Assembly: GCA_944349805.1 (NCBI GenBank)
Contig: CALVNP010000055.1
Span: forward strand, 1,565-65,564
Source: an uncultured Clostridia bacterium
Lineage (GTDB): Bacteria; Bacillota; Clostridia; Christensenellales; UBA1242
DNA: 64,000 nucleotides
Direction: 5' to 3'
Part shown: piece after piece, positions 8,462 to 27,053 of the stretch
How positions within the stretch are numbered: the stretch's first letter is position 1
How the letters are laid out: every line of letters starts with the position of its first letter
Notes under the pieces: model-generated
The model's database searches: none
What the model saw: the letters and a program-made list of their open reading frames with translations, nothing else
Told to the model about the DNA's origin: nothing
Made by a program: the position numbers and the translations under genes

Positions 8462-9733
8462 ATGAAATATCATTTTTACAATGCAAATATTTTATCTGCT
8501 GGTGAAATAATAAAAGGAGATGTTGTTGTAGAAGATAATGTAATAACATATGTTGGAAGTTCAATAGACACCATTTCTGATAGAAAAATAGATGTTAATG
8601 GTAATCTGTTAATGGCAGGCTTTGTAAATGCGCACACTCATAGTCCAATGTCCATTTTTAGAGGTATTGCAGACGATATCGACTTAAATTCTTGGCTTTT
8701 TGATAAAATCTTCCCAGCAGAGCAAAAACTAACACCAGAAGATGTTTATTGGGGAGAAATGCTTGGTATTGCTGAGCAGGTTAGGGCAGGAATTACAACA
8801 ATTGAAGAGTGTTATTTCTTTTATGATAAGCTTTTGGAAGCGATAAATAAAAGTGGTATTAGATGTAGAATTGGAATACCAAATAACTTTCAAGAATGTG
8901 AAGATGGCAAAATGAAAGAGTTTTTGGACTCAATAATTTCCCAACTAGATAATGAACTTATAAAACCTGTAATCTATGCACATTCAATTTATACATTAAG
9001 CGATGATGAACTAAATTATTTAGTTGATTATTCTGCTAAAAACAAACTTCCAATGAGTATGCATATGTCTGAAACATTGAAAGAAGTTGGAGATTGTACT
9101 GTAAAAAATGAATGTACTCCACCTGAATATTTGGAAAATATTGGTTTTTTAGACAGAAAAACAACTTTGTATCATTGCGTGCACTTAGATAAAGATGATA
9201 TAAAAATTTTGGCAGATTATAATGTGAATGTTGTTACTTGCCCTTCAAGTAACCTTAAACTTGCTTCTGGTATTGCTCCAATTTATTCAATGTTGAATCA
9301 GGGCTTGAATATATGTATAGGTACTGACGGCGTAGCTAGTAATAATGCTTTTGATATGTTTAAAGAGATGTTTTTGGTTGCAACTTTAAATAAGGCACTT
9401 TTATATGATGCATCTATTATTTCTGCTAAGCAGGTAATAGAAATGGCAACTAAAAATGGTGCAACTGCTTTAGGCTTTGATAGGTGTGGTGATATTAAAG
9501 TTGGGAATTTAGCAGATTTAATTTTATTGGATTTAAACGCAGTTCACCATCAACCACTAAATAACATTATTTCTAACATTGTTTATTCTGCAAAAAGCTC
9601 TGATGTATATTTTACTATGGTGAATGGTAAAATTCTTTATGAAAATGGTAAATTTTATATTGGAGAAAATATTGAAGATATTTATAGTAATTGTAAAAAA
9701 ATTGCAAAAAGAATTTTTAATTTAATTGATTAA
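8462..9733 (+). CDS. mtaD: Amidohydrolase of the MtaD/SsnA chlorohydrolase family (probable 5-methylthioadenosine/S-adenosylhomocysteine deaminase)
   Basis: Metal motif FVNAHTHSPMS. Downstream H, H and D positions (MHMSET, YHCVH, GTDG) fit the amidohydrolase superfamily. Confidence 0.75.
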   Translation: MKYHFYNANILSAGEIIKGDVVVEDNVITYVGSSIDTISDRKIDVNGNLLMAGFVNAHTHSPMSIFRGIADDIDLNSWLFDKIFPAEQKLTPEDVYWGEMLGIAEQVRAGITTIEECYFFYDKLLEAINKSGIRCRIGIPNNFQECEDGKMKEFLDSIISQLDNELIKPVIYAHSIYTLSDDELNYLVDYSAKNKLPMSMHMSETLKEVGDCTVKNECTPPEYLENIGFLDRKTTLYHCVHLDKDDIKILADYNVNVVTCPSSNLKLASGIAPIYSMLNQGLNICIGTDGVASNNAFDMFKEMFLVATLNKALLYDASIISAKQVIEMATKNGATALGFDRCGDIKVGNLADLILLDLNAVHHQPLNNIISNIVYSAKSSDVYFTMVNGKILYENGKFYIGENIEDIYSNCKKIAKRIFNLID

Positions 9734-9774
9734 ATTCATATGTGGGTTTATAATATTGAAAAGAGGTGATTAGT

Positions 9775-12231
9775 ATGAGTAATTTGAATTCTTTTTCAGA
9801 TAGTGCTGAAAAAGTTATAAAAAATGCTGGCAAAATAGCAAAAGAATTAGGTAGTAATGAAGTTGGAACAGAACATATTTTGTATGGAATTACAAGCGTA
9901 AAAGAGTGTGCTTCATCAAAACTTTTAGCTGAATATGGTATCACAGAAGAAAGTATGGAAAATGTACTTGAAGAAAATGCTGATAGCATTCAAATTTTTG
10001 GGACGGAAATTGAATTTACTCCAAGAGTTAAGGATTTGTTTAGATTGGCTCAAAATATAGCTATGCAACTTGGACACAATTTTATTGGTACTGAACATCT
10101 ATTGTATGCTCTTTTGTCTAGTAGTGGAAGCTTTGCATATAGGCTTATGTTTGCATATTTTAGAGTAAATATAAATGAATTAAAAACAAAAGTATTAACA
10201 TATTTACAAGGTCAAAATAATTCTAATTCCAATTCAAATGATATAGATGCTGGGAGCACAGGAATGAAAAGCACTCTTCCAGAAAAATTGTTATCAATGG
10301 GTACGGATATCACATTAAAAGCTAGGGAAGGCAAAATTGACCCAATTATAGGTCGTGAACAGGAGATTGAAAGAGTTATTGAAATTCTTTGTAGAAAAAC
10401 AAAAAATAATCCTGTTTTAATTGGTGAGGCTGGTGTTGGTAAAACAGCAGTAGTTGAAGGCTTGGCTCAGGCAATTGTAGAAGGAAATGTACCAGAATTA
10501 TTGAAAGATAAAATTATATATTCACTTGAAATTGGTGGGCTTATGGCAGGAACAAAATATCGCGGTAGTATGGAAGAAAGGCTTAAAGATGTTATAGAAA
10601 CAATAATAGCAAGTAAAAATATCATTGTGTTTATAGATGAAATTCACACTCTTGCACAAGCTGGTTCTGAAAAAGGTGAAACAAGTCCTGCTGATATGCT
10701 AAAACCTTATCTTGCCCGTGGAGAATTGCAAACGATTGGTGCAACTACAACAGATGAATATAAAAAATTTGTGGAAAAAGATAAGGCATTGGAAAGAAGA
10801 TTTCAACCTATAATGGTAAATCCACCAACCGTTGAACAGACAATTGAAATATTGAAAGGCTTAAAAGATGCTTATGAAGCATTCCATAAAATAACCATAA
10901 CCCCAGAAGCAATTGAGGCAGCTGCAACACTTTCAGACAGGTATATAATGGATAGAAGCTTGCCAGATAAAGCAATAGATTTAATTGACGAAGCAAGTAG
11001 TAAAGCAAAAGTTAACTTTAATTTAAAACCAAGTGCAATTAGGGAAAAAGAAGAAAAAATAAAACAACTTTCTGCAAACAGAGATGATGCTTCAATACAA
11101 AGAAATTATGAGAAGGCTGCGAAATTACAATCTGAAATAATTAAGCTTGAAAACGAACTTGAAACATTGAATGCTGATTATAACAAGACAGTAAAGAGAG
11201 CATCGAGCTCAATAGGTGCAAATGAAATTGCAGAAGTTGTATCAAAATGGACAGGTATTCCTGTTACAAAAATAACTGAGTCAGAAAAAGATAGGCTTAT
11301 TCATTTGGAAGAAATATTGCATAAGCGAGTTGTAGGACAGGAAGAGGCTGTAAATGCAGTTGCAAGGGCAATCAGGCGTTCAAGAGTTGGTCTCCAAGAT
11401 AATAAAAGACCAATTGGCTCATTCTTGTTTATGGGGCAAACAGGTGTTGGTAAAACAGAGCTTTCAAAAGCAATAGCTGAAGCAATGTTTGATAACGAAA
11501 ATAACATCATCAGACTTGATATGAGTGAGTATATGGAAAGTCATTCAGTGGCTAAGTTGATTGGTGCTCCTCCTGGATATGTTGGATACGATGAAGGTGG
11601 TCAATTGACAGAACAAGTCAGACGCAGACCTTATAGTGTTGTGTTGTTTGATGAGATAGAGAAAGCTCATCCTGATATTTTTAATGCGCTATTGCAAATT
11701 TTAGATGATGGAAGATTGACCGATGGACAAGGTAGACTTGTAAGTTTTAGAAATACAATAATAATTATGACAAGTAATCTTGGTTCAGCAGAAGTCAGAG
11801 CTAAACATTTGGGATTTAATGAAAATGAAGAGCAAAGAGATATGACTGAGGTCAAGAAAATATATTTAGAGGCATTGAAGCATAAGTTTAAACCAGAATT
11901 TATTAACAGAATTGATGTTATTTGCGTTTTCCATCCATTATCTAAGGAAGATTTAACAAAAATTGCCAAAATGCTTATAAGCAACATAAATGAAAGATTG
12001 AAGAAACAAAATTTAGAGTTAAAAATAACAGAAGATGCTTTAAATTTAGTTGTTAATAATGGGTGTGCAAATGCTGAATATGGCGCTAGACCACTTAAAA
12101 GATATATTCAACAAGAAATAGAAGATAGAATTGCAGAAAAAATGCTTTTAGGTGAGCTTGAAAAAGAAGGAACAATTATTATTGATTGCGAAGGTAATGA
12201 ATTAACATTTGAAAGTGAAAATAATGCATAA
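9775..12231 (+). CDS. clpC: AAA+ chaperone ClpC (Clp protease ATP-binding subunit)
   Basis: Double Clp_N repeat. Two Walker A motifs ([16 protein letters not shown]). The middle domain is short, as in ClpC rather than ClpB. ATG 9775 sits behind RBS AGAGGTG. Confidence 0.9.
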
Positions 12232-12279
12232 ATGTTTGTTTTTATAGTTTAAATTTGGTATAATACTAACGGAGGATGT

Positions 12280-12810
12280 ATGAAAATTGAATTTATAGAA
12301 AGAAATTATGATATTGGAAATAGATTAAAGGAACTTTTAACAAAAAAGATAAATAAACTTGATAGATATTTTGGTGATGATGCAACTGCAAGAGTCGTAT
12401 GTAAATTGGAAAACAAAACTTATAAATTAGAGCTTACGATAACAAATAAAGGATTATTGTACCGTTCAGAAGTTACAGGGGAAAATATGTATGAAAATAT
12501 TGACCTTGCACTTCCTAAAATTGAAAGACAGATTATTAAACAATCAGAAAAAAGGAAAGATAAATTTAAGGCAGGAGCATTTGATGTTCCAGAATTCTTG
12601 TTCTTAGAAGAAAAACCAGAAGAGAAAAAGAGTGAAATTTATAAGAAAAAGACATTTGATCTTATTCCAATAACAATTGAAGATGCAAAAGAGTTTATGG
12701 AAGCATTAGACCATAAGTTCTATGTATTCTTGAATGCTGAAACAGGACTTGTAAATGTTTTGTACACAAGGGGAGATGGACAATTAGGTCTTATTGAATG
12801 TAACTATTAA
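12280..12810 (+). CDS. hpf: Ribosome hibernation-promoting factor (long HPF)
   Basis: 176 aa with an N-terminal S30AE/YfiA-like domain, a charged linker and a C-terminal dimerisation domain (FYVFLNAETGLVNVLYTRGDG.LGLIE). Confidence 0.9.
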   Translation: MKIEFIERNYDIGNRLKELLTKKINKLDRYFGDDATARVVCKLENKTYKLELTITNKGLLYRSEVTGENMYENIDLALPKIERQIIKQSEKRKDKFKAGAFDVPEFLFLEEKPEEKKSEIYKKKTFDLIPITIEDAKEFMEALDHKFYVFLNAETGLVNVLYTRGDGQLGLIECNY

Positions 12811-12816
12811 TATAAT

Positions 12817-12841
12817 TCACCAGCTAAGCTGGTGGATTTTT
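12817..12841 (+). terminator. Rho-independent terminator after hpf
   Basis: Stem CACCAGC/GCTGGTG followed by a T-run. Confidence 0.75.
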
Positions 12842-12896
12842 AGTAATTAACCAACCACATCTTTTCTGCATAGTATATAGAGAAGAGGTGGAAAAG

Positions 12897-12992
12897 GTGA
12901 GAATAATTTGTGTTAAGGCGCCAAAAATTCTTTCTGGTTTGTTAAAATTAATTTTTAGGAAGAAAATAATAAAGCCTGATGTATTGGATTGA
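12897..12992 (+). CDS. spoVM: Stage V sporulation protein M (small amphipathic peptide); absent from the supplied ORF track
   Basis: A 31-codon GTG ORF, VRIICVKAPKILSGLLKLIFRKKIIKPDVLD, lies behind RBS GAGGTGG. It matches the SpoVM pattern M(K/R).(I/V)..K.PK.L.G..R..F. Its position next to rpmB matches the spoVM-rpmB neighbourhood in Bacillus subtilis. Confidence 0.7.
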   Translation: MRIICVKAPKILSGLLKLIFRKKIIKPDVLD

Positions 12993-13000
12993 TACATAAT

Positions 13001-13032
13001 AAAAAAAGACGACTTTAAGTCGTCTTATTTTT
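13001..13032. terminator. Bidirectional terminator between spoVM and rpmB
   Basis: Stem AAGACGAC/GTCGTCTT, flanked by an A-run on one side and a T-run on the other. Confidence 0.8.
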
Positions 13033-13214
13033 TAATTCTTTTTGCTTGTTTTAATACATTTTGTGCAAGCTCTAACTTTCTTTTGCTCGCCATCTATTTC
13101 CATAACAACATCTTGAAGATTAGCGTCCCAATGTTTGTTTGCTTTACGATTTGAGTGGCTAACTGTGTTGCCTTTCATTTTACCTTTTCCACAAACTTCA
13201 CAAACTTTACTCAT
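13032..13214 (-). CDS. rpmB: 50S ribosomal protein L28
   Basis: MSKVCEVCGKGKMKGNTVSHSNRKANKHW..NLQ is the typical L28 sequence. RBS AGGAGG. Confidence 0.95.
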   Translation of the reverse strand: MSKVCEVCGKGKMKGNTVSHSNRKANKHWDANLQDVVMEIDGEQKKVRACTKCIKTSKKN

Positions 13215-13440
13215 ATTTCCTCCTAAACTAGATTATTACTACTAATGCTTGCCTATTCTAGCATTAAAAAGATTTTTTTGCAAGCATTTTGTTTAAAAAA
13301 TTTCAAAAAGATATATAATTTTAGTTGAAAATTAATTATTAGTGTAGTATATTATATTTGTATGCTAGCTATTGGCAGATTTTAAGTTCAAAATTTCAAT
13401 TTTTTGTTTATATATAATTTAAAAAAAGGAATTCACACTG

Positions 13441-13791
13441 TTGACAGTTGAAACTAATAACTATTATGGTAAAATAAGTATATCCGGCGAAGCAATTGCT
13501 GTCGTTGCGGGCTATGCTGCACTAGATTGTTATGGTGTGGTTGATCTTGTATCTAAAAATTTAAGAGATAACATTAAGGAATTAATTAAAAGAAAAAAAT
13601 ACTCTAAAGGTGTTAAAATTACAACTGTAGAAAATAGAATATTTATTGATATATACTGTATTTTAAAATACGGTGTTTCTATTAGTGCCGTTGCTGAAAG
13701 CCTTAAAAAATCTGTCAAATATAGCGTAGAGAATTTTACCGGAATGATTGTGGACACTGTAAATGTACACGTCGTTGGTGTAAGGGTGTAG
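13441..13791 (+). CDS. Asp23/Gls24-family envelope stress protein (YloU homologue)
   Basis: 116 aa with I...AIA.VAG.AAL.CYGVV, typical of Asp23. It lies directly upstream of the DAK2 gene, as yloU-yloV does. The start is TTG. Confidence 0.85.
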   Translation: MTVETNNYYGKISISGEAIAVVAGYAALDCYGVVDLVSKNLRDNIKELIKRKKYSKGVKITTVENRIFIDIYCILKYGVSISAVAESLKKSVKYSVENFTGMIVDTVNVHVVGVRV

Positions 13792-15429
13792 GTGCATATG
13801 CAGAAGGTTATAAATGGCGCAGAATTAAGAAAAATGATAATAGGTGGAGCTAGCTTGCTTGAACAAAATAAAAAGCTTGTAGACTCTTTAAATGTTTTCC
13901 CTGTACCAGATGGTGACACAGGGACAAATATGTTTTTAACTATGAAATCAGCTGTTAACGAAGTTAACAACTGTTTGAATAACAATTTGGACAGTCTTTG
14001 TGAAGCATTTGCAAAGGGTGCTCTTCGTGGTGCAAGAGGTAATTCTGGGGTTATTACATCTCAGATTATTAAAGGCTTTTGTAGTGTGTTAAAAACAGCA
14101 ACAGAAGTAAATACAAAGGTTTTTGCAAAGGCAATTCAAGAAGGTGCAAACATTGCTTATAAGGCAGTTACAAAACCAAAAGAAGGCACAATTTTAACTG
14201 TTATAAGGGTTATGGCAGAGAGTGCTGTTGATGCTGCTAAAAGGAATTCAACATTTGAAAATTTCTTTAAAATTGTACTTGATAAGGGTGAAGAAATTTT
14301 ACAACAAACTCCTGAAATGTTGCCTGTGCTTAAAAAAGCTGGTGTTGTTGATGCTGGTGGAAGGGGACTTATAGTCATCTTTACAGGTTTTTATAAAGTT
14401 CTTTTGGGTGAAGAACTTGATTTTGTGTTTGAAGATGCTCCAATTCAGGCAACTGTGGAAGATGTTGTTCCGGACTTAAATAACATCCCTGAAATTGAAT
14501 TTGGTTATTGTACAGAATTTATGATAATCAATATGCATAAAAAGACTACGGAAGCAGATATTGATAAGCTTCGTGAAAAACTTATGCAGATAGGGGACTC
14601 TGTGCTTTGTATAGGGGATTTATTGCTTGTAAAGGTGCACGTTCATACAAATCAACCAAATGTTGCTCTTGGATATGCTCTTGAACTTGGTGAACTCTTC
14701 AATTTAAAAATTGAAAATATGAGGGAGCAAAATAGAGAACTTAAAAGAAAAGCACAGCAACAACAGGACCTTAAAGAACACGGAATGGTTGCCGTTGCTC
14801 CTGGAAAAGGCATTGCTGACTTGTTTAAGGATTTATATGTTGACCAGATCATAGAAGGTGGGCAAACAATGAACCCAAGTGCTGCCGATATAGCTAGCGC
14901 AGCAGACAAAATTCCAGCGAAGAATGTGTTTGTGTTCCCAAACAACAAGAATATAATTTTGGCAGCAGAACAAGCTAAGGGCTTGACAACAAAAAACCTG
15001 AGAGTTATTCCATCTAAGAGTGTTCCGGAAGGTATTTCATCAGCACTTGCTTTTAATCCAGAAGGTACTGTGGAAGAAAACGAAGAGGCAATGATTGCTT
15101 CACTTCAAAATGTAAAGTCTGGTTCTGTGACTTATGCAGTTAGAAGTACTCACGTTGATGGCTTTGACTTGTCTGTTGGGGAAATTATAGGTCTTGATGA
15201 TAAAGCTATTTTGTCAAAAGGAACACTTGTTGGTCCAACAACGGAAGCTTTGATAGAAAAATTAATAACAGATAGTGCAGTAAACATAACACTTTTTTAT
15301 GGTGAAGATATCAAGGAAGAAGAGGCATTAAACTTACAACAAAAACTTGCTGAGAAATATCCAGAATGTGAAGTTACAGCAATATATGGGGGACAACCTG
15401 TTTATTATTATATAATTTCAATAGAGTAA
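13792..15429 (+). CDS. DAK2-domain fusion protein (YloV homologue)
   Basis: N-terminal Dak2 signature LN.FPVPDGDTGTNM and a C-terminal DegV-like/uncharacterised domain. 545 aa, typical for YloV. Confidence 0.9.
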   Translation: MHMQKVINGAELRKMIIGGASLLEQNKKLVDSLNVFPVPDGDTGTNMFLTMKSAVNEVNNCLNNNLDSLCEAFAKGALRGARGNSGVITSQIIKGFCSVLKTATEVNTKVFAKAIQEGANIAYKAVTKPKEGTILTVIRVMAESAVDAAKRNSTFENFFKIVLDKGEEILQQTPEMLPVLKKAGVVDAGGRGLIVIFTGFYKVLLGEELDFVFEDAPIQATVEDVVPDLNNIPEIEFGYCTEFMIINMHKKTTEADIDKLREKLMQIGDSVLCIGDLLLVKVHVHTNQPNVALGYALELGELFNLKIENMREQNRELKRKAQQQQDLKEHGMVAVAPGKGIADLFKDLYVDQIIEGGQTMNPSAADIASAADKIPAKNVFVFPNNKNIILAAEQAKGLTTKNLRVIPSKSVPEGISSALAFNPEGTVEENEEAMIASLQNVKSGSVTYAVRSTHVDGFDLSVGEIIGLDDKAILSKGTLVGPTTEALIEKLITDSAVNITLFYGEDIKEEEALNLQQKLAEKYPECEVTAIYGGQPVYYYIISIE

Positions 15430-15457
15430 AAAATGCGAGTTCAAACTCGCATTTTTA
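15430..15457 (+). terminator. Rho-independent terminator after yloV
   Basis: Stem AAATGCGAGT/ACTCGCATTT followed by a T-run. Confidence 0.8.
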
Positions 15458-15533
15458 TTTTGAAATCGACTAAATGATAGAAAAGAATTGCAAAAAGATA
15501 GTAAATATGATAAACTAGTCAAGTTTAAGGTAT

Positions 15534-15572
15534 GTCCTCTTAGTTAAACGGATATAACAAGCCCCTCCTAAG
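15534..15572 (+). other. attL: 5' half of the host tRNA-Arg(CCT) gene, ending in the 8-bp core CTCCTAAG (15565-15572)
   Basis: GTCCTCT-TA-GTTAAACGGATATAAC-A-AGCCC-CTCCTAAG gives the acceptor 5' strand, D arm, 5' anticodon stem and anticodon loop. tRNA-like sequence stops abruptly after the core. Confidence 0.85.
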
Positions 15573-15655
15573 TATCGCATTGAACACAATAAAAATCGCT
15601 AAATCGCCCGAATTACGCATACTTTCAAACCAAACAAACAACCACAAAACACAAT

Positions 15656-15677
15656 TTGTACCCAAATTGTACCCAAA
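15656..15677 (+). repeat. Tandem 11-bp repeat TTGTACCCAAA x2 (candidate arm-type integrase sites, left end)
   Basis: A perfect tandem duplication lies about 85 bp inside attL. The same motif recurs near attR. Confidence 0.6.
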
Positions 15678-15717
15678 ACAAAAATTAACCCCAATAACAC
15701 AACAAAATCACTCATAT

Positions 15718-15794
15718 GTGGGTATAGCTCAGCTGGATAGAGCGTCCGCCTCCTAAGCGGAAGGTCTGCAGTTCAAATCTGCATACTCACACCA
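15718..15794 (+). tRNA. Element-borne tRNA-Arg (anticodon CCT), complete
   Basis: GTGGGTA-TA-GCTC-AGCTGGATA-GAGC-G-TCCGC-CTCCTAA-GCGGA-AGGTC-TGCAG-TTCAAAT-CTGCA-TACTCAC-A-CCA. 77 nt with a canonical cloverleaf and one G-U pair in the acceptor stem. Confidence 0.92.
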
Positions 15795-15798
15795 ATTT

Positions 15799-15822
15799 AA
15801 CATCCCCAATGGGGTGTTTTTT
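15799..15822 (+). terminator. Terminator after the element tRNA
   Basis: Stem ACATCCCC/GGGGTGT followed by T6. Confidence 0.7.
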
Positions 15823-15871
15823 ATAAAATATGATTTTAATCAAAATTGATTTATTTTTTTTATAAAAATGG

Positions 15872-15900
15872 TTGACAAATGAAAAATATTAATTTATAAT
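15872..15900 (+). promoter_or_regulatory. Consensus SigA promoter upstream of the XRE/ImmA pair
   Basis: TTGACA, exactly 17 nt, then TATAAT. It lies 26 nt upstream of the XRE start codon region. Confidence 0.7.
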
Positions 15901-15925
15901 GTAGGCATGATAAAGGAGAAAAATT

Positions 15926-16288
15926 ATGAAATATACACCTTTTGGAGAATTTTATAAAATACTTCGTATAAAAAATCATGAGAACTTAAATGACGCTAGT
16001 AATCTTTTAGATGTGTCACCAGCTTTTATTTCATCTGTAGAGTGTGGTAAAAGACCTGTTCCTGATGATTGGTATAATATTTTATGTAAACACTATTCTT
16101 TATCACAAACAGAACAGTCACAATTAAAAGACGCCATAGACGCATCTCAAACTATTGTCAAGTTGGGGTTACTTAATGCATCTCTTCAGCAAAGAAAAGT
16201 TGCTGTAGCATTTCAGCGATCATTTGATAATTTAAATGAAGAGGTAGCAAATGAATTATTAAAAATCCTTAATAAGGTTAAAAAGTAG
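15926..16288 (+). CDS. XRE-family helix-turn-helix regulator (ImmR/CapH-like)
   Basis: 120 aa. The HTH is LNDASNLLDVSPAFISSVECGKRPVP. RBS AAGGAG. Its stop overlaps the start of the downstream metallopeptidase gene (TAGTG). Confidence 0.8.
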   Translation: MKYTPFGEFYKILRIKNHENLNDASNLLDVSPAFISSVECGKRPVPDDWYNILCKHYSLSQTEQSQLKDAIDASQTIVKLGLLNASLQQRKVAVAFQRSFDNLNEEVANELLKILNKVKK

Positions 16289-16812
16289 TGGATTATAAAA
16301 CATATCCAATTAAACGACAATCATTGAGAGAAATTGCGTCTATATTAAGAAAAATATTTGGCTGTAAAAATAAGTATAAATTTAATGTTGTGGATTCTTT
16401 TGAAAGAATACATTCTTTATTCTCCAATATTTATACGGAAGTAGTTGAAGATGAAGAATTAGAAAGAAATATTCCAGCAAGATGTATTCCAGATTTTGCA
16501 AATAATGAATATTTGATACAAGTTAAAAATTCAGTTTATGAGGGTGCTTGCGATGAAATTGGAGGATATCGAGCTCACATTCTACACGAAATATGTCATG
16601 CCATACTTTGTATTTTAGGTTTCGTTCCAATTATGGATAGACAGTACAAAAATAATGAAATTAAATGTTATGAAAGCATGGAATGGCAGGCAAAAGCTTT
16701 GTGTGGAGAAATTCTAATGCCATATAATGAAACTCAAAATTTAAGTACTGAAGAAATTATGAGATTTTGTAAAGTTTCTAGAGATAGTGCAGAAAAAAGA
16801 AAAACTTATTAG
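16288..16812 (+). CDS. ImmA/IrrE-family zinc metallopeptidase (ImmA/CapP-like)
   Basis: 174 aa with HEXXH motif HEICH within AHILHEICHAIL. It is translationally coupled to the upstream XRE gene, the classic repressor/anti-repressor protease arrangement. Confidence 0.75.
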   Translation: MDYKTYPIKRQSLREIASILRKIFGCKNKYKFNVVDSFERIHSLFSNIYTEVVEDEELERNIPARCIPDFANNEYLIQVKNSVYEGACDEIGGYRAHILHEICHAILCILGFVPIMDRQYKNNEIKCYESMEWQAKALCGEILMPYNETQNLSTEEIMRFCKVSRDSAEKRKTY

Positions 16813-16944
16813 TTGATTTCAGGTATTACCTGTTTTCATAAAAAAAAGAACAAGTTCGCACCTTGTTCTAAAACGGATAAGGCTCCGTAATGCCGTTTGA
16901 AATATGTTCTAATTTCGTAACAATAATATTATAACATATTTTGT

Positions 16945-16976
16945 ATCGGTATGCAAGTCCTTGCGCCGATTTTTTT
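16945..16976 (+). terminator. Rho-independent terminator after the XRE/ImmA operon
   Basis: Hairpin ATCGG..GCAAG-TC-CTTGC..CCGAT followed by T6. Confidence 0.65.
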
Positions 16977-17018
16977 AAATTTACTAAAAAAATCGAGACT
17001 ACTTCAAGGAGGTGTTAA

Positions 17019-17237
17019 ATGGGAACACTGTACACACTTATTACCGGTATGAGTATAGTAGGTATCAAGGCATTAGATATATTCCTATCTTTTATATTTG
17101 ATTGCTTGTCATTTACTATTGCTTGGAAGATTGGTGGACTAGGTACGACTTCAAAAATGCGTGGCTTTTTACACTGGTCTAGTAGAATTGGTATATATAT
17201 TTTATTAGTAATCACAACAAAAAATATAATTTTATAG
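17019..17237 (+). CDS. Small 2-3 TM membrane protein, first gene of the CBASS-like operon
   Basis: 72 aa behind the very strong RBS AAGGAGGTG with 5-nt spacing. It is hydrophobic. There is only a faint resemblance to the N-terminal part of phage_holin_4-type holins. Confidence 0.5.
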   Translation: MGTLYTLITGMSIVGIKALDIFLSFIFDCLSFTIAWKIGGLGTTSKMRGFLHWSSRIGIYILLVITTKNIIL

Positions 17238-17243
17238 GAGACA

Positions 17244-18485
17244 ATGTTTATGGATAAATTTAAAAAAGAAGAACTAATGAATAAAATTGCGCATGCACTG
17301 GATATCACTCCTCAAATTTATAACGAATCGATAAGTGCTGTTCGTGGATTAAGTGCTTATATAAAAAATCAAATTAAAAATGTTGAGATTTATAAACAGG
17401 GTTCGTTTAAATTGGGCACAATAGTTAGACCATATTACAAAGATAAAGACGGCGAATTTGATATTGACTTAGTAGTACAATTTCAAGCGAGCAAAAATAA
17501 TATAAAACCTTCAACAATAAAACAAGCATTAAGATCATGTTTATCTTCTCAAAATTACAGGAACTTATTAGAAGAAGAAAAAAGAAGATGCTGGACTTTA
17601 CACTATCCTTCTAATACGTGTTCATTCCATGTTGATTTATTGCCATGTGTTGATGAATCATCAGAAGTTAAAAGCTCTATTGCTCCTGTACAATATAGAA
17701 ATACCTCTATTGCAATAACTGAAATTGAAGATAAAAAAAACAAACCTTATAATTATAAATGGATGACCAGTAATCCTAAAGGCTATGCTGAGTGGTTTGA
17801 TGATATCAATCAACGTGTTTATGGAGAAATAAAAAAACAAGATAGGCTCAGAGTTTTGAACGAGAATATAACAATGTTTGATTCTATTGATTCTGTTTCT
17901 GATGAATATACTAGAACTCCTTTGCAACAAGTAATACAAATATTAAAAAGACATCGTGATGTTATGTATTGCAACGATAGCGACAATGCTCCAATCTCTA
18001 TTATTATAACTACATTGGTTGGTAAGATTGTTGAAGAAAATCCAAAAGTATACAATACCACATATGATTTATTAAATTCTGTTATCGAAGGCCTAAATTT
18101 TTATTCTCAACTAACAATTGGTGGTATAACAACAGATTTTAGTGAGGATTTTAAGACCAAAAAATTAATTACTAAAAATATGCAAAACGGTAAACCTTAT
18201 TGGTGTATAAAAAATCCAGCAAATTCTCAAGAAAATTTAGCAAACAAATGGAATGAAAATCCAGAAAAAGCAACTGAATTTTTTAAATGGGTTCGTCAAG
18301 TAAAAAGTGATTTGATAGATATATTAGACTTTGAGCCAGAACAAATTAAGCAAAAATTAAAGTACTGTTTAGGAGAACGAATTAGTAACCAGGTTTTATA
18401 TGATTTTAATTTCAATAACATAGATAGTTCTAAATCACGCACATTAAATTTTAGTGATAGTACTCCTAAACCATATAGATGGTAG
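17244..18485 (+). CDS. CD-NTase / SMODS-family nucleotidyltransferase (CBASS cyclase candidate)
   Basis: Pol-beta-type NTase motifs QGSFKLGT...(13)...EFDIDLVV, with the third acidic residue in FHVDLLPC. The downstream LKRHRD and SIIITTL helices are typical of cGAS/DncV-like enzymes. RBS AGGAG. The second ATG at 17250 is better spaced from it. Confidence 0.7.
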   Translation: MFMDKFKKEELMNKIAHALDITPQIYNESISAVRGLSAYIKNQIKNVEIYKQGSFKLGTIVRPYYKDKDGEFDIDLVVQFQASKNNIKPSTIKQALRSCLSSQNYRNLLEEEKRRCWTLHYPSNTCSFHVDLLPCVDESSEVKSSIAPVQYRNTSIAITEIEDKKNKPYNYKWMTSNPKGYAEWFDDINQRVYGEIKKQDRLRVLNENITMFDSIDSVSDEYTRTPLQQVIQILKRHRDVMYCNDSDNAPISIIITTLVGKIVEENPKVYNTTYDLLNSVIEGLNFYSQLTIGGITTDFSEDFKTKKLITKNMQNGKPYWCIKNPANSQENLANKWNENPEKATEFFKWVRQVKSDLIDILDFEPEQIKQKLKYCLGERISNQVLYDFNFNNIDSSKSRTLNFSDSTPKPYRW

Positions 18486-18489
18486 CCTT

Positions 18490-19170
18490 ATGGATTTTGA
18501 TTTTTTTAGAGATGGGCTCGTATTATTTGATGAATATCAATTAACAAAGTTTGACAAATTTGAAACAATCTCTGGGATATACAACTTAGATGTGATAGTT
18601 AAAGATAAAGTTTATCAAGGGAAATTTGCAGTAATTATAAATATTGAAAATACAAAAAATTTTATTCCAGAAGTTTATTTACCAAATCTTTCTTTACCTT
18701 ACAAATTCGAGCATGTATACAAAGACAAAAACAATTTATGCTGTTTAGGATTAAACTATGAAATTGAGCTAACTTGGGGAGAAAAACGTAACTTTTATAA
18801 TTTTTTAACAAAGATCTTAGATCCTTTCTTAGTAAATTATTTAGAATACTGCCAAACTAAAAATTATATAAACGGTGATAGACCTCATGCAAAAGAAGGA
18901 TTAATTGAGTACTACTCTCAATTTTTTCCTAATGAAAACCACAATAAAATAATTCCTATTTTATTATATTGTTATCATAAAATTTCAAGAAACGAATTTG
19001 CAAAAGGTAATAACTTGTGCCCTTGTGGCAGCGGTAAAAATATTAGGCATTGTATTCATCAACAGAAAATTAGAGAATTTATTAATAATGCATTAAATAA
19101 TGCTTACTTAAAAAATGCGTTTCTAAACGATATGAAAAATTATATAGGAGACAAAAATGAGCAAAGGTAA
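18490..19170 (+). CDS. E2/UBC-like protein with C-terminal SEC-C zinc motif (Cap2-short-like candidate)
   Basis: The sequence shows a UBC-like layout. The beta-meander is GKFAVIINIENTKNFIPEVYLP. The catalytic-loop-like segment is EHVYKDKNNLCCLGL (H75, C84/C85). A helix TWGEKRNFYNFLTKILDPFL follows. The C-terminal CPCGSGKNIRHC is a SEC-C motif. The start is uncertain (ATG 18490 or GTG 18454). Confidence 0.5.
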   Translation: MDFDFFRDGLVLFDEYQLTKFDKFETISGIYNLDVIVKDKVYQGKFAVIINIENTKNFIPEVYLPNLSLPYKFEHVYKDKNNLCCLGLNYEIELTWGEKRNFYNFLTKILDPFLVNYLEYCQTKNYINGDRPHAKEGLIEYYSQFFPNENHNKIIPILLYCYHKISRNEFAKGNNLCPCGSGKNIRHCIHQQKIREFINNALNNAYLKNAFLNDMKNYIGDKNEQR

Positions 19171-20296
19171 AAATATTAACAAAGAAACAAGAAACTATTC
19201 AAAAGAAACAATAGCTTTACTTTATGGAAAAACTGCAGGTCATTGTACAATTTGTAATCGACCTTTGCAGTTTGACAATTACTCCCATAGTGATGTAAAC
19301 ATTTCAGAAAAAGCACACATTAAACCTTTTAGCGAATTAGGACCTCGCTCTTCAACTGAAGTTTTAACCACAGAAGAAAAAAACGGTTATGATAATTTAA
19401 TTTTGCTCTGTGGAGCATGTCATTCTACTATCGATAAAAAAGTTTTAGAAGGTGTATATACTGTAGACTGGCTGAAAGAGGAAAAAATACGAAAAGAAAA
19501 ACAAATACGCGAAGTGATGAAGTGTTTAACTCCAAAAGAAATATATTGCTTAAAGTTATTTAGCCCGATAGCTGATTCAAATTTTGATTATGATGATAAT
19601 TTGTTAAAAAGATTGTGCTACAAAAATGGTTTTCATGTAAATGAAACTTTAATTGATTTAGGAGATAATCTTAATATTGAAAATAAAAAAATAAATTTAA
19701 CTGTATTCAATCAACAAATAAAATCTAAAGTGAAATTATTAAATAATAATGGAGAAAATAATGAACTTTGTATATTTGCACTTGGACCACAATATTTGTT
19801 AATAAAATTAGGTTATGAATTATCCGATAAAATAGATGCACATATTTTTACAAAACATAGAAATGGATGGATTTATGATAATATCAATGAAAAGAAAAAT
19901 TACTTTTCTATAATTCGTCCTGTGAAAATTGAAAAAAATAACCAAGTGTCTATAATTGTTTCATCTAGCGCAGAAGTAAATCACGATAGAGTATATCATT
20001 GTTTAGGTAAAAATATAGATATCTGGGAATTAAAGGCAAATAATATAGGTATTGATAATATAAATTCAATAGAAGAAATAGTACAGTTTTCAATTCAATG
20101 TGTTACTATTATTGATAATATTGGCACTATATATGGTAAGGATAAAATAATTAATTTATTTCCTGCTATGTGTAATTCTTTGGCTGTTAAATTTGGACAA
20201 TCAATATTTCATAAAAGCCATAATAAAATTTTGATATATGATACTATTAAAGATAAAACAGGGGAAATAATAGAAAAACCCATTTTAAAAATTTAA
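19157..20296 (+). CDS. HNH endonuclease fused to a SAVED sensor domain (Cap5-like CBASS effector)
   Basis: The N-terminal HNH is CTICNRPL...EKAHIKPFS...NLILLCGACHSTID. The C-terminal ~230 aa contains two CARF-like repeats (ELCIFALGPQYLLIKLGYELSD and IINLFPAMCNSLAVKFGQSI) as in SAVED. RBS AGGAG. It overlaps the previous gene by 14 nt. Confidence 0.7.
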   Translation: MSKGKNINKETRNYSKETIALLYGKTAGHCTICNRPLQFDNYSHSDVNISEKAHIKPFSELGPRSSTEVLTTEEKNGYDNLILLCGACHSTIDKKVLEGVYTVDWLKEEKIRKEKQIREVMKCLTPKEIYCLKLFSPIADSNFDYDDNLLKRLCYKNGFHVNETLIDLGDNLNIENKKINLTVFNQQIKSKVKLLNNNGENNELCIFALGPQYLLIKLGYELSDKIDAHIFTKHRNGWIYDNINEKKNYFSIIRPVKIEKNNQVSIIVSSSAEVNHDRVYHCLGKNIDIWELKANNIGIDNINSIEEIVQFSIQCVTIIDNIGTIYGKDKIINLFPAMCNSLAVKFGQSIFHKSHNKILIYDTIKDKTGEIIEKPILKI

Positions 20297-20337
20297 AAAA
20301 TATCCACCACCAATAAATTTGGTAGTGGATTTTTTTA
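20296..20337. terminator. Bidirectional terminator between the Cap5-like gene and the integrase gene
   Basis: A 12-bp stem ATCCACCACCAA/TTGGTAGTGGAT with one mismatch, with an A-run on one side and a T-run on the other. Confidence 0.75.
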
Positions 20338-21729
20338 TCCAAAAATTTTATTGATTTTTTCTGAGGCGTGGATGTCGCTATTTTGCAAAAAGTGAGAATA
20401 AAAGTCGCTTGTCGTGCTTGCTCTGGCGTGGCCTGCACGCGTTGAAACCGTCTTCATATCAACTCCAGCATTGAGTTGCAATGTGATATTGGTATGGCGC
20501 AGCGAGTGTAGTGTAACCTTAGGCAAACCCGCTTTATTCAAAATCTTATGTAGCCAAACTATGTATAGCCCATGTGATATTGGCTCACCAGAATCTGTTG
20601 AGAACAATCTATCAATCGTTTCCCATCTATCGCCAAGATATGACTTATGTTCTTGCCACCAAGTTTGGTATTCCTTTAAATATGTGATCAAGTTCTCTGG
20701 CATTGAGATCGTTCTTTTGGACGTTTCTGTCTTTGGCTCTTTTGTGAATATCCCAAAACCAGGTAATTCTTGCACTGAGCGGCATATTCTCATTGTGCCA
20801 TTTTCAAAGTCAATATCTTTCCACTCAAGGCCACCAAGTTCACCGCGTCTAAGCCCCATATACAAAATTGTTAAAATTGCAATGCGCCAACGCGGATTTA
20901 TTTCTTCTTCTCGCAAATAGCGTTCCAATTCAATAGCCTCTTTATCATTAAGGATTTTTATTTCCTTTTTATATCCCTGTATAGGAGCAATGTATTCTTG
21001 GGATGCAAAATTGTGTTCAATTAAGCCTTGACGCTTTGCACTCGCGAGTATTGTCGCAAGCGTGCGCTTTAGCTTTAATATTGTTTCTTTTGCATATGGA
21101 TGACTATCTGTTTGAATTTTGAAATAATCATCAAATTTGAGATTTAAAATTTCACATAACTTTTGTGCATTTGAAACTAATATGCCATGGCCTGAAAGTG
21201 CTGAAAAGTATGTTGACCTAGAAAAGTCGTTTTCTCGCAGTTTCTTGCACAAATCTACCGAATGCGATCTTACAAATAGTTGTAAATCTTTAATAAGGAA
21301 CGCTCGTTCCATTTGCACTTTATGGCTGCAAAGCTTGTCCAAATATCCTTGTACTGTTATTGGCCTGATGTCTGCAAGTTTGATGTTCCCAAAGTATTCT
21401 TCAAACTTTCGCAGTGCATCTCTGCCTTTAATAAAGTAGTTGACTGAACGCGTCATTTTAATCGTTTCAAGCCACTTGTATGCATATTCCATAAAGGTGA
21501 TAGAATCGTCAACCATAATGTCGCCATTCAGTTGCTTTCTAAACTTGTCTTCAAATTCAATTTCAAGGCGTTTAAGTTCCTTTTCACATTGTCTCTCAGT
21601 CAGTTCTGCAGGCTTGCGCCATGTCATAACCTTAGCCTCAAATTTACCTGTTCGCAAGTTTTTTGCTTTGACCTGTATGCGATAAGATATATCACCATTT
21701 TGCAAAACATTCTTTTTTATGCATCCCAT
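20335..21729 (-). CDS. Tyrosine site-specific integrase
   Basis: 464 aa. Box I is LYMGLRRGELGGLEWKDI. Box II is LHSLRHTNIT...AGHARASTTSDFYSH, giving the R..HxxR..Y catalytic set. The N-terminal arm-binding-type domain is GDISYRIQVK. RBS AGGAGG. Confidence 0.92.
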   Translation of the reverse strand: MGCIKKNVLQNGDISYRIQVKAKNLRTGKFEAKVMTWRKPAELTERQCEKELKRLEIEFEDKFRKQLNGDIMVDDSITFMEYAYKWLETIKMTRSVNYFIKGRDALRKFEEYFGNIKLADIRPITVQGYLDKLCSHKVQMERAFLIKDLQLFVRSHSVDLCKKLRENDFSRSTYFSALSGHGILVSNAQKLCEILNLKFDDYFKIQTDSHPYAKETILKLKRTLATILASAKRQGLIEHNFASQEYIAPIQGYKKEIKILNDKEAIELERYLREEEINPRWRIAILTILYMGLRRGELGGLEWKDIDFENGTMRICRSVQELPGFGIFTKEPKTETSKRTISMPENLITYLKEYQTWWQEHKSYLGDRWETIDRLFSTDSGEPISHGLYIVWLHKILNKAGLPKVTLHSLRHTNITLQLNAGVDMKTVSTRAGHARASTTSDFYSHFLQNSDIHASEKINKIFG

Positions 21730-21740
21730 AATTGCACCTC

Positions 21741-21959
21741 CTAATTTATTTTTATTTGTTCCATTGGTAATGCGTATTCTTTACTTTGAAGGAAAGCAAG
21801 TAGTGAATCGAAGTCCACCATAACTTTACTTCCTGTTTTTACTGAACGAATTTTCTCGTTGTATGCAAGCATCCTAATGAAGTAAGCAGTGATACTAGAA
21901 TCAGGATCTTCATGCTTAATCATTTTTACAGCCTCGTTTATTGTTCTTATTCTTGTCAT
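21741..21959 (-). CDS. Small Xis-like / excisionase-type DNA-binding protein
   Basis: 72 aa (MTRIRTINEAVKMIK...ITAYFIRMLAYNEKI...) lying immediately upstream of int in the same direction. RBS GGAGG lies 6 nt before ATG 21959. The longer 120-aa ORF-track form is rejected. Confidence 0.6.
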   Translation of the reverse strand: MTRIRTINEAVKMIKHEDPDSSITAYFIRMLAYNEKIRSVKTGSKVMVDFDSLLAFLQSKEYALPMEQIKIN

Positions 21960-22072
21960 TGAAACCTCCTCGTGCTGTCCTTGACTGGAGCTTTTTGGTA
22001 GCAGTGATGTTACCTCTAAATTTATTAAAAGTCCAGACAATTCGCAGCTAATCTTAAAACTTATTTCTAAAT

Positions 22073-22106
22073 AGCGCGGCATTTGCCCTAAACAGCGCGG
22101 CATTTG
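22073..22106. promoter_or_regulatory. Direct repeat AGCGCGGCATTTG x2, spaced 21 bp start to start (candidate operator of the xis-int promoter)
   Basis: Two perfect 13-bp GC-rich copies (22073-22085 and 22094-22106) sit in an AT-rich region about 115-150 bp upstream of the xis-like start. Confidence 0.5.
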
Positions 22107-22171
22107 TGCAGAAACACTTTTCTTGAATAAATTATCGTCTTTGATAAAACATCGCCACAGAGCGCAAATAT

Positions 22172-22235
22172 TTGATTTCTTTTGAATTTTGATTTTATTT
22201 GATTATTTTTTGATTTATTTTTGATTTTTTATCAA
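22172..22235. repeat. Helically phased TTGATTT repeats, 6 direct copies plus an inverted copy
   Basis: TTGAT/TTGAA motifs start at 22172, 22182, 22189, 22199, 22210 and 22221 (spacings 10, 7, 10, 11, 11). An inverted ATCAA lies at 22231. The block sits between the rep-like and xis-like genes. Confidence 0.6.
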
Positions 22236-22311
22236 CGAAAATCCATATATTAAAACATCAAAAACTTAAGAATTGCCTTATATTTAGGGCAATTTGCCAA
22301 GCTAACAACTA

Positions 22312-23088
22312 TTATTTTTTTGATTTTTGATTTCGCGAACTTTTGTGTGAAAGCCCGCGTCCGCTCACAAGCCTAATCCCGTAGAGATTTAGAGCCCCTC
22401 CCTCAGAAAGTGGTGGAAGTTCACTTATCATTTCAGTTAACACTTCCTTCACAACATTTTCAAAAGGATTATTTGGTCTGCGCTGTAATTCATCTGCTGA
22501 TGGTACAGTAAGAAGAATTAACTTGTCCGATACACTATCAGTTTTTGAATCTTTAAAATGCATATCAAAAGCATATTCACTTATTAGCGGTTTAATCTTT
22601 TGCTTTAATTTTAAAACAAACAAGTTCCCATCCAGATCCTTCACGCGCGCGTTTCTAGAAATAATTTTAATTTTATTTTTATAATATCTCACTATTACAG
22701 GTACTGCTTGTCCGGCTGGTAGGCAAAGAATGTCTTGTCTATCATCAGGTGTCAGCATTGGGCTACCGTCCAAACCCCAAAAAAGAATCTCAGAATTTAT
22801 GTAAATGTAAAGGCGGTTGTTGTTTTCTAAATGCCTTTTTATTATTCCTTTTTCTTCTAAGCCAACAAGAATTCTGCGAGTTTGGCGCTCCTTTCTTCTT
22901 AGGATAGGTAGGTCATCAAGCATCTTTTTGTATGTAATCCAACAATACTTCCTCCTGTTAATGAATTTTGTAACAGCGTTGCCGCTATCAAAGAACTTGA
23001 TTAAATAATCAAGTAGCAATGCATCTTGCATTGTAAGTCCAAGTCCGACCATAGTTTTTTGATCAAAGTCGAAAATGTATTCTCTCAT
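22312..23088 (-). CDS. Winged-helix replication-initiator / replisome-organizer-like protein
   Basis: 258 aa. The N-terminal ~100 aa (LTMQDALLLDYLIKF...WITYKKMLDDLPIL..KERQTRRILVGLEEKGIIKR) looks like a DnaD/replisome-organizer-type wHTH. It has a basic C-terminal tail and is flanked on both sides by repeat fields. RBS AGGAGG. Confidence 0.45.
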   Translation of the reverse strand: MREYIFDFDQKTMVGLGLTMQDALLLDYLIKFFDSGNAVTKFINRRKYCWITYKKMLDDLPILRRKERQTRRILVGLEEKGIIKRHLENNNRLYIYINSEILFWGLDGSPMLTPDDRQDILCLPAGQAVPVIVRYYKNKIKIISRNARVKDLDGNLFVLKLKQKIKPLISEYAFDMHFKDSKTDSVSDKLILLTVPSADELQRRPNNPFENVVKEVLTEMISELPPLSEGGALNLYGIRLVSGRGLSHKSSRNQKSKK

Positions 23089-23510
23089 AATATCCTCCTA
23101 ATTAAATTTTTTTGCCACGCAATAGGTTGATCAGGTCTATCACGAAGCATATATTTTAACGAGCTCTCGAGCACTCGATAAAACCAAATTGAAATGTGCC
23201 TACATATATAAGGACTAAGAAAGGCAAAAGTCCCCTAGCAATGTGCCAAAAATTTTCATCCTCCTATATATAAGGACAGAAAAAGTTAAATCACCACTAG
23301 TAAAGCGCCAAGTTTTTTATAAAACAAAAAAAGACCGCTAAACTAATAGCAGTCTCTTTTGACCTTCCTCTTATATTATACGGCTCGGCACAGACATAGC
23401 GTAATCCGGTCGTTCACTTTTCATAATCTTTTCGTGACTTTTTTTGAATTATCGCAAAATAACACACCTACAAAAGAACAAAATTTAATCCTGTTTAATA
23501 AATAATTTGC

Positions 23511-23940
23511 TGTCACAAGTGTCATATCCGTCACTAAAAAATAAACTTACATAATAAAAAACGTTGTCATCCTTGTCACATCCGTCACAAGAAAAATGAC
23601 AGAAATGACAAATGACATTAAAATTCGTTTATATAGGAATTAGTGACACTTATGACAACGATGACAAGGATTTTAATATAAAACAGTGACACTTGTGACG
23701 CTTGTGACAGGTAATTTTTATATAAAAACATTTGTCCTATTTGTCCTTTGTCCACAAAATAATGGACAGAAAGACAAAAGGCAAATAGATTCGTTTAAAA
23801 GGACATATTGGACAAACAGGACAAATAGACAAATAAATTTTTTATTTTTTACCGAATCTCACGCGTACGCGCACGTAAAATAATTAGTGTTTTAGTGTCT
23901 TTAGTGTCAGAAATTACACTAATTACACTATTACACTAAA
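23511..23940. repeat. Non-coding iteron field: three short-repeat families in direct and inverted trimer arrays plus one GC-rich direct trimer, mostly at 9-bp periodicity
   Basis: GTCAC/GTCAT trimers lie at 23512-23534 and 23566-23588. Inverted TGAC(A) trimers lie at 23597-23617, 23644-23666 and 23686-23708. TTGTCC x3 lies at 23732-23753. Inverted GGACA arrays lie at 23764-23786 and 23801-23832. ACGCG x3 lies at 23859-23876. TAGTGT x3 lies at 23885-23907. Inverted TACACTA x3 lies at 23915-23938. Confidence 0.9.
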
Positions 23941-24001
23941 TTTGTTTGATCTATATATTAGTAGTAACCCCAAATTTTCCGATAAAAAAAGAACGGGCAG
24001 G

Positions 24002-24382
24002 TTAGTCCGTTCTCTTTTTATTCAATATCATTAATACTATTACACTTATTATTCCTATCAGAAGAATTGACGGAACTACAATTTTAATCCACAATGGCCA
24101 AGAAATAAGCCATCGTTGAAACTCTATAATACCTTGATATATGAATATTCCAATGATAATAAGAATTACAAAAACAGCAATAAAAGCATCTTTTCCATCT
24201 TTTTTATTTGTTATCAAATGAAGTGAGTATAACACACCTACAATCGCATATGCAATCATGCCTATTATTGCAAATACAGTATTCCAAAAATAATTATCTA
24301 AAAAGCCAATGCCGGTTATACTTAAAGAGGAAATCAAAGCAACCAATAAAATTTTATAATAACTAAGAGAATTGTTCTTCAT
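24002..24382 (-). CDS. Four-TM membrane protein, last gene of the R-M operon
   Basis: 126 aa with four hydrophobic helices. The start lies 8 nt after the ASCH gene stop. No recognisable family. Confidence 0.55.
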   Translation of the reverse strand: MKNNSLSYYKILLVALISSLSITGIGFLDNYFWNTVFAIIGMIAYAIVGVLYSLHLITNKKDGKDAFIAVFVILIIIGIFIYQGIIEFQRWLISWPLWIKIVVPSILLIGIISVIVLMILNKKRTD

Positions 24383-24389
24383 ATTTTAC

Positions 24390-27028: not shown

Positions 27029-27053
27029 TATATTTACCTCAATATATGACATT

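Follow-up and report, generated by a model that had tools for sequence, protein, structure and literature searches.

Integrative elements that destroy a host tRNA gene and bring their own replacement have been described as tRNA-dependent lysogens. Guerrero-Bustamante and Hatfull (mBio 2024; PMC10865867) describe actinobacteriophages, among them Fionnbharth/K4, cluster L, Gaia, BrutonGaster and others, in which a tyrosine integrase uses an attB site within a tRNA gene and a core of 8-17 bp without reconstructing the gene, as was shown experimentally in mycobacterial phages. Viable lysogens then require a phage tRNA of the same anticodon. Classical and replacing phages coexist there in one integrase family, and the authors expected the strategy to occur outside Actinobacteria. 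The Fionnbharth tRNA gene is described there as lying elsewhere in the phage genome, overlapping a protein gene on the opposite strand and having its own demonstrated promoter. Bioinformatic accounts (PMC10865867; PMC11476347) add prophage Lj965 from Lactobacillus johnsonii and sequences of phage origin in Sinorhizobium meliloti, where the tRNA is likewise not rebuilt and a cognate tRNA akin to those of other taxa is brought in.

The element analysed here lies in a 64-kb stretch of DNA from an uncultured Clostridia bacterium (the window, meaning the whole stretch). It displays four defining features of tRNA-dependent lysogeny, namely a tyrosine integrase, an attB in a host tRNA gene, a short shared core that does not rebuild the gene, and a carried tRNA of matching anticodon. 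Here too the integrase family includes both classical and replacing members, the classical case being a relative designated L064. In contrast to the actinobacteriophages, this is a 12.3-kb element of a low-GC Clostridia host, in which no phage structural genes were found and which carries CBASS and restriction-modification (R-M) genes. Its targets are arginine isoacceptors and its crossover falls in the anticodon loop, again unlike the described lysogens, and whereas the tRNA of Fionnbharth lies apart, the tRNA here belongs to a fixed cassette, in which it points in the same direction as the split gene and lies at 123-190 nt from the core. In this family carried tRNAs serve in turn as targets, and such serial stacking is not described in the available portion of PMC10865867. 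Nor do the accessible accounts of Lj965 and the S. meliloti sequences, which concern prophages of other phyla, describe a conserved core-arm-tRNA cassette, stacks of 5' halves or a defence-island context. The viability requirement has been demonstrated for the actinobacteriophages, while the corresponding argument here is drawn from sequence (covariation and host AGG usage).

With classical tRNA-targeting islands and prophages (the sublocation classes of Williams 2002; Islander, PMC4383910) the element shares a tyrosine integrase, a tRNA target, an anticodon-loop crossover and arm-type repeats flanking the core. In classical elements, however, attP carries the 3' part of the tRNA, the gene is regenerated and a 3' fragment is displaced. 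The present element shares just 8 bp with its target and leaves the gene split, with an orphan 5' half upstream of a whole substitute. Islander looks for island sequence that restores the split tRNA, with the displaced fragment as a direct repeat; the direct repeat here measures 8 bp, compared with 45 bp in L064.

The element also resembles the small integrative defence islands and the satellite-like or mobilizable elements of Firmicutes in its backbone of integrase, small open reading frame (ORF) and Rep-like gene, its iteron-like region and its variable defence slots. Compared with PICI-like elements, it has the integrase, HTH regulator, Rep-like ORF and iteron-like repeats, while terS, capsid-morphogenesis and other packaging families were undetected. 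As no packaging, relaxase or helper-interaction genes were recognised in the element, its membership of the satellite or mobilizable classes is not established. To our knowledge a tRNA-replacement cassette is not a described feature of any of these Firmicutes classes, and our literature search found no description of the Clostridia family or of a linked core-arm-tRNA cassette. What is new here is the host group, the non-phage island with CBASS and R-M cargo, and the fixed core-arm-tRNA cassette; the principle of the mechanism is already published. The original prediction had called replacement by a carried gene an unusual solution, and unusual it is, but with the precedent of tRNA-dependent lysogeny (PMC10865867) it is not unprecedented.

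The interrupted tRNA gene and its element

A host tRNA-Arg(CCT) gene of 75 nt is interrupted at its anticodon loop by the 12.3-kb element (15573-27906). The features of the locus, in window coordinates, are:

15488-15516, plus strand: promoter-like site of the host tRNA gene (TTGCAA, 17-nt spacer, TAAACT, with TG ahead of the second hexamer), read by eye and unlisted in the consensus scan
15534-15572, plus strand: 5' half of the host tRNA-Arg(CCT), terminating in the attL core CTCCTAAG (15565-15572)
15573-15717, plus strand: left arm, attP-derived and of P' type, with direct TGTACCCAAA repeats at 15657-15666 and 15668-15677
15718-15794, plus strand: complete element-borne tRNA-Arg(CCT), 77 nt, with A20, discriminator A73 and an encoded CCA (ARAGORN and Rfam)
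15799-15818, plus strand: terminator-like hairpin followed by a T-run (intrinsic type), found by scan just 3' of the carried tRNA
15926-16812, plus strand: HTH regulator (120 aa) and M78/IrrE-type peptidase-domain protein (174 aa), both weak Pfam matches under the curated cut-offs
17244-20296, plus strand: CBASS cargo of CD-NTase cyclase, E2-like protein and HNH-SAVED effector (PADLOC, Pfam)
20335-21729, minus strand: tyrosine integrase (464 aa) with SAM-like N-terminal and catalytic domains and RRGE, HSLRH, GHA and Y motifs
21741-23088, minus strand: 120-aa ORF of unknown function and 258-aa Rep-like protein, backbone upstream of the integrase, its DNA conserved with the relatives L001-L003
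23494-23745, no strand assigned: iteron-like cluster of GTGACA/TGTCAC inverted repeats (repeats I1, I2 and I5) adjoining the Rep-like ORF
24390-27085, minus strand: ASCH-domain gene (conserved backbone), then type II R-M cargo
27139-27567, plus strand: right-end backbone gene, phrog_21303, function unknown, conserved in L003 and L010
27731-27906, plus strand: right arm of P type, with TGTACCCAAA at 27765-27774, AGTACCCAAA at 27736-27745 and GAGCG immediately ahead of the core
27907-27950, plus strand: attR core CTCCTAAG (27907-27914), then the 3' half of the host tRNA-Arg(CCT) to its encoded CCA

The attL core comprises the 7-nt anticodon loop and one further base. Joining 15534-15572 to 27907-27950 in silico at the shared core yields a valid 75-nt tRNA-Arg(CCT), and two metagenome contigs, L081 and L082, contain the identical tRNA without an interruption, between flanks that match the window at 72-81% identity. 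This shows that the split gene is real and that it was an ordinary gene until the element inserted. In both contigs the intact tRNA is preceded by a similar TTGCAA...TATACT site. These contigs came from the metagenome scan and represent related species with rearranged flanks, not an insertion polymorphism within one species. When L081 (1-500) and L082 (11850-14670) are set against 13057-15572 of the window, fakA lies inverted on the opposite side of the tRNA, and L081 opens with 33 nt that repeat the fakA 3' end in inverted orientation. Either the region around the tRNA has been rearranged or the arrangement is an artefact of assembly. For an empty site in the same species, identical-protein look-ups with HPF returned only contigs shorter than 3 kb, and those with FakA (ATG at 13798) and the integrase returned nothing. 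The attP junction predicted after excision would read ...TTTTGAGCG-CTCCTAAG-TATCGCATTG...; neither an attP junction nor an excised circular form was found in the 144 loci or in IMG/VR.

Core copies lie on the plus strand at 15565, 15750 and 27907, with one on the minus strand at 60562. These four copies in 64 kb compare with 0.71 expected by chance, and four were reached in none of 100 shuffles. The direct repeat of the element ends is limited to these 8 bp, the core being the sole sequence common to both sites, and there is no tRNA-like sequence past the core at attL or ahead of it at attR. Since only the 8-bp core is shared with the target, the host tRNA was not rebuilt by the insertion. The junctions point to integrase-mediated recombination between attP and attB at the host tRNA, and the integrase itself is well matched by profiles (Pfam Phage_integrase, 2e-19, with SAM-like N-terminal domains; PHROG 1 integrase, 3.6e-55).

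The exact 10-mer repeated in the arms is present three times in the whole window, twice in the left arm and once in the right arm, always on the same strand, and the right arm also holds a one-mismatch copy. Confinement to both ends is the pattern expected for integrase arm-type sites, and the right junction of L003 has the same layout. In L002 (reverse complement 8095-8385, compared with 15573-15717 of the window) the paired left-arm repeats differ (TTCCACCCAAAAGTCACCG versus TTGTACCCAAATTGTACCC); the L002 integrase is 98% identical to that of the window, and its N-terminal 60 residues and the carried tRNA are identical. Either L002 has a hybrid junction created by recombination within the tRNA, or the repeats are not integrase arm sites. 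The L002 repeats thus weaken the arm-site assignment unless they mark such a hybrid.

Comparison with the closest relatives separates a shared backbone (the arm and tRNA, the int-to-Rep block, the ASCH gene and the right-end gene) from two variable slots that hold defence genes. Upstream of the integrase, the Rep-like ORF (22312-23088) has weak similarity to the PHROG 428 replication initiation protein (E = 5e-8), the repeat cluster beside it may be the replication origin of the element, and the 120-aa ORF may encode an excision or directionality factor. There is also a pair of 53-nt direct repeats at 23204-23318. The HTH and peptidase-domain genes resemble an ImmR/ImmA-like regulatory pair. 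The first variable slot, between the carried tRNA and the integrase, contains a complete CBASS operon, with a CD-NTase cyclase, a nucleotide-sensing effector and an E2-type accessory gene (PADLOC: cyclase 1e-93, E2 2e-31, HNH-SAVED effector 3.5e-69; Pfam SMODS and SAVED); in other genomes this slot holds AbiTii (L003), a C5 methyltransferase (L006) or a C5 methyltransferase with a type II endonuclease (L011). The second slot is occupied by the type II R-M genes (24735-27085), which encode an MvaI/BcnI-family endonuclease, a 416-aa methyltransferase and a small controller-type HTH protein. Profile matching of the element ORFs detected no phage structural, packaging or lysis families, which sets this 12.3-kb element apart from the temperate phages of tRNA-dependent lysogeny.

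ARAGORN reports two tRNAs in the window, tRNA-Trp (7074-7147, minus strand) and the carried tRNA-Arg(CCT). The latter scores 66.5 bits against the Rfam tRNA model (gathering score 29) and starts 145 nt past the end of the left core; the third plus-strand core copy (15750-15757) sits in its anticodon loop. Its coordinates and description in the original prediction, a complete 77-nt tRNA-Arg(CCT) with a terminator 145 bp inside attL, agree with ARAGORN, Rfam and the terminator scan. The assertion that it shares essentially no sequence with the host tRNA was slightly overstated: the two are 58% identical overall, mostly at universally conserved tRNA positions. They differ in all of the acceptor, D, anticodon and T stems, and the conclusion that the carried gene is not a duplicated fragment stands. 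A separate inner element targeting the carried tRNA was considered and rejected, there being no direct repeats of the carried tRNA 3' end within 15400-28100, and we therefore regard everything between the two host halves as one element.

The cassette recurs across gut Clostridia

A search with the integrase, covering one genome per GTDB species, gave 449 confirmed relatives, from which 80 loci were kept; nearly all of these belong to Clostridia metagenome-assembled genomes from gut samples. At integrase identities of at least 60%, a tRNA-Arg(CCT) lies a few kb past the integrase C-terminus in almost every locus, and more distant relatives lie beside tRNA-Arg(CCG) or tRNA-Arg(ACG). The same layout recurs: the 5' half breaks off in the anticodon loop and is followed by an arm bearing a direct-repeat pair and by a complete tRNA of the same anticodon. 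We scored it with a scripted test that required a D-arm-like fold before the repeated loop motif and searched the co-oriented direction only. By this test 30 of the 42 integrase-linked tRNA-Arg genes have the layout, with the 5' half 123-190 nt upstream of the complete tRNA (CCT, CCG and ACG), and every detected instance is co-oriented with its outer half, that being the one orientation searched. The expectation that related islands would combine a split 5' half with a carried tRNA of the same anticodon is thus upheld. Among the genomes that scored are those of the cultured Pumilibacter muris and P. intestinalis (Arg-CCG), as well as several of Christensenella type (Arg-ACG). The exceptions are mostly explained by contig ends (L016, L017), a loop variant (L014, L034) or a classical element (L064).

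Four more elements are bounded on both sides (L003, 12.1 kb; L019, 10.2 kb; L033, 4.3 kb; L021, 12.3 kb), and in each the two outer halves rejoin to a valid tRNA. The smallest, L033 (reverse complement about 9027-13304), consists of the arm, the tRNA, the integrase and about 2 kb more, and looks like the element reduced to a minimum.

The arm and tRNA module of the window recurs at 91-94% identity in L001, L010 and L014, behind different outer halves and beside closely related integrases. This bears out the earlier suggestion that the cargo tRNA is xenologous. The carried tRNA itself is identical in L001, L002 and L014. In L014 (reverse complement 8031-8330) the window-type arm and the identical tRNA-Arg(CCT) stand behind the 5' half of a tRNA-Arg(TCT), whose loop TTTCTAAG deviates from the core at two positions. 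The element seems here to have integrated off target, in another isoacceptor for which a CCT tRNA could not substitute.

L064, a distant relative from Agathobaculum (reverse complement 9758-9834 and 18434; integrase about 32% identical), has a 45-bp direct repeat that spans a tRNA-Arg(CCG) from its anticodon loop to its 3' end. It is a classical element, and classical and replacing strategies therefore coexist within the integrase clade. Integrases of GenBank phages were at most 34% identical, none with the arm and tRNA module; relatives in IMG/VR were at most 40% identical and mostly without an adjacent tRNA.

Two successive 5' halves precede the complete tRNA in seven loci (L001, L009-L013 and L041). 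The right ends of these loci lie beyond the 10-kb flanks, so that nested 3' halves are out of view. In L010 the middle half is the 5' half of the window's carried tRNA, preceded by a window-type arm, and similarity to the window stops exactly at the core. It follows that a window-type carried tRNA was itself the target of a second, different element, which inserted at its anticodon loop. The core copy inside the carried tRNA had been put forward as a potential secondary recombination site, and the split at this sequence in L010, together with the stacks in the other loci, corroborates that role.

Two further arrangements were seen. L143 (IMG/VR UViG_3300029419_000202, reverse complement about 2720-3260) has four to five tRNA-Arg 5' halves, 40-90 nt apart, before one complete tRNA-Arg(CCT), which suggests that replacement took place many times or that arms are much shorter in this lineage. 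L031 (reverse complement 19540-19800) contains an attP-like junction of non-tRNA sequence, the core CTACGGA, an arm and a complete tRNA-Arg(ACG), which points to a tandem array whose elements met at the outer core and not through the carried tRNA.

Selection on the carried tRNA and its probable role

The 19 element-linked tRNA-Arg(CCT) genes that we aligned represent 8 distinct sequences. Across these, 100% of stem cells are standard-paired, with double compensatory changes in 12 of the 21 pairs. The observed covariation score was reached in none of 500 shuffles, and shifting the partners by 1-3 columns abolished pairing. Selection has maintained the cloverleaf. Displaced outer halves, by comparison, contain indels and substitutions (L015, L031 and L041). 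Paired stems beside decayed halves are as expected if the complete copy is a working gene and the outer half debris, and the covariation makes the carried tRNAs look functional.

The carried tRNA might instead be mainly a portable landing pad that keeps an anticodon-loop target available for related elements or for re-integration, with compensation as a side effect. The stacked 5' halves do show carried tRNAs being used as targets, and in L010 one of window type is split exactly at the core. For that purpose, however, the loop of 7-8 nt with its flanks would suffice, whereas compensatory changes preserve pairing in all four stems and the ends are canonical; moreover, invasion by a competitor brings no obvious gain to the resident element. 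We regard this explanation as improbable.

Codon usage bears on a second alternative. AGG accounts for 22% of arginine codons in the host genes of the window and 9.6% in the island genes, or 6.6 and 4.5 per 1000 codons, respectively. This comparison, which the original prediction had raised, shows the host to be the heavier user, and the carried tRNA therefore fits the need of the host better than that of the island. We rejected codon supplementation for the island, as it uses AGG less than the host does. More broadly, the tRNA could serve needs of the element itself, by supplementing codons or by acting as a decoy or spare when defence nucleases cleave tRNAs, and would then match the target only by coincidence. 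Such roles have been proposed for phage tRNAs (PMC10865867), and defence genes are aboard the island. In addition to the lower AGG usage, the carried anticodon always equals that of the split tRNA across CCT, CCG and ACG, which would be unexpected without a link to the target, and the elements are without lytic genes; we give this alternative very little credence. The least probable reading, which we disfavour, is that the tRNA is a passive souvenir without current function, taken from a former host through imprecise excision or left by a decayed tandem element: tandem and hybrid junctions do exist in the family (the attP-like junction of L031, the mismatched arm of L002), but the position is constant at 123-190 nt, the module is conserved across genomes, covariation keeps the cloverleaf, and displaced halves decay while carried tRNAs do not.

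We therefore favour, with a probability of about 0.8, the reading that an integrative element split the host tRNA-Arg(CCT) gene and that the tRNA of its cassette most likely takes over AGG decoding, read-through being the suggested route of transcription. That compensation would come from cargo and not from reconstruction by attP, as originally proposed, is supported by the 8-bp limit of the shared sequence, the linked and recurrent tRNA of the same anticodon, and the covariation of its cloverleaf. Expression of the carried tRNA and compensation for the lost gene are what we infer from these sequences.

In the mechanism that we propose, the element, with its tyrosine integrase, Rep-like gene and defence cargo, has recombined inside the 7-nt anticodon loop of tRNA-Arg(CCT). 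A fixed cassette lies next to the crossover, made up of the core, an arm of about 145 nt with putative integrase arm-type repeats, a complete co-oriented tRNA-Arg(CCT) and a terminator, and integration has brought it immediately downstream of the host promoter and the orphan 5' half. The carried tRNA would be transcribed by read-through from the captured promoter, released by RNase P and 3' processing, and would replace the host tRNA for AGG decoding. The same anticodon loop in the carried tRNA offers a new target to the next related element, which accounts for the stacks of 5' halves in other genomes.

We put read-through from the captured host promoter at roughly even odds. It is consistent with a simple consensus scan, which scored no promoter-like or terminator-like site in the left arm (15573-15717) and placed a terminator right after the tRNA. 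The co-orientation of every detected instance with its outer half also fits, within the single orientation that the script covered. The window arm is A+C-rich with T-runs of at most 3. Members of the close group have T-poor arms, with about 20% T and no run beyond 4, and their genomes have a GC content of about 30%. Against read-through, the arms of distant lineages are T-rich, with T-runs of up to 6; by eye, the window arm contains weak promoter-like combinations such as TTGTAC-17-CCCAAT, and the older stacked half in L001 has an apparent promoter-like site of its own. A weak promoter inside the arm is a possible alternative to read-through.

Compensation may also be dispensable: our view is of a 64-kb window, and a second tRNA-Arg(CCT) elsewhere in the genome, or wobble reading of AGG by tRNA-Arg(UCU), may make it non-essential. 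The addiction-like effect that had been suggested is weak and unsupported as stated, because precise excision by the integrase would rejoin the intact halves and restore the host gene. The host would come to depend on the island only once the element or the outer halves decay.

Consequences for tRNA genes and mobile elements of gut Clostridia

These results extend a mechanism demonstrated only in actinobacteriophages to another phylum and to non-phage defence islands. Splitting and replacing the tRNA is the rule for the whole integrase clade, across three arginine isoacceptors, and the standard design of a large gut-Clostridia family. Island finders that rely on a regenerated tRNA and a displaced 3' fragment would be likely to miss or mis-delimit such elements. 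They can be searched for simply and specifically by an orphan 5' tRNA half that precedes, by about 150 nt, a complete tRNA with the same anticodon. The family also shows that tRNA genes, commonly regarded as stable, can undergo repeated horizontal exchange.

The compact combination of integrase, attP and tRNA, which together with everything else in L033 occupies 4.3 kb, may yield integration vectors for gut Clostridia that are hard to engineer. Mycobacterial versions have been proposed for such use.

A broader proposal, to which we assign slightly less than an even chance, is that these islands constitute a large and hitherto undescribed gut-Clostridia clade of non-phage defence islands with an obligatory core-arm-tRNA cassette. 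Each insertion would kill the resident tRNA-Arg and swap in a foreign tRNA expressed from the captured promoter; that tRNA would be the next landing site, making the locus a self-renewing hotspot in which dead 5' halves accumulate and leading to horizontal replacement of tRNA-Arg across species. If this is true, tRNA replacement would be a general strategy of mobile elements and a driver of tRNA gene turnover, and not a peculiarity of actinobacteriophages.
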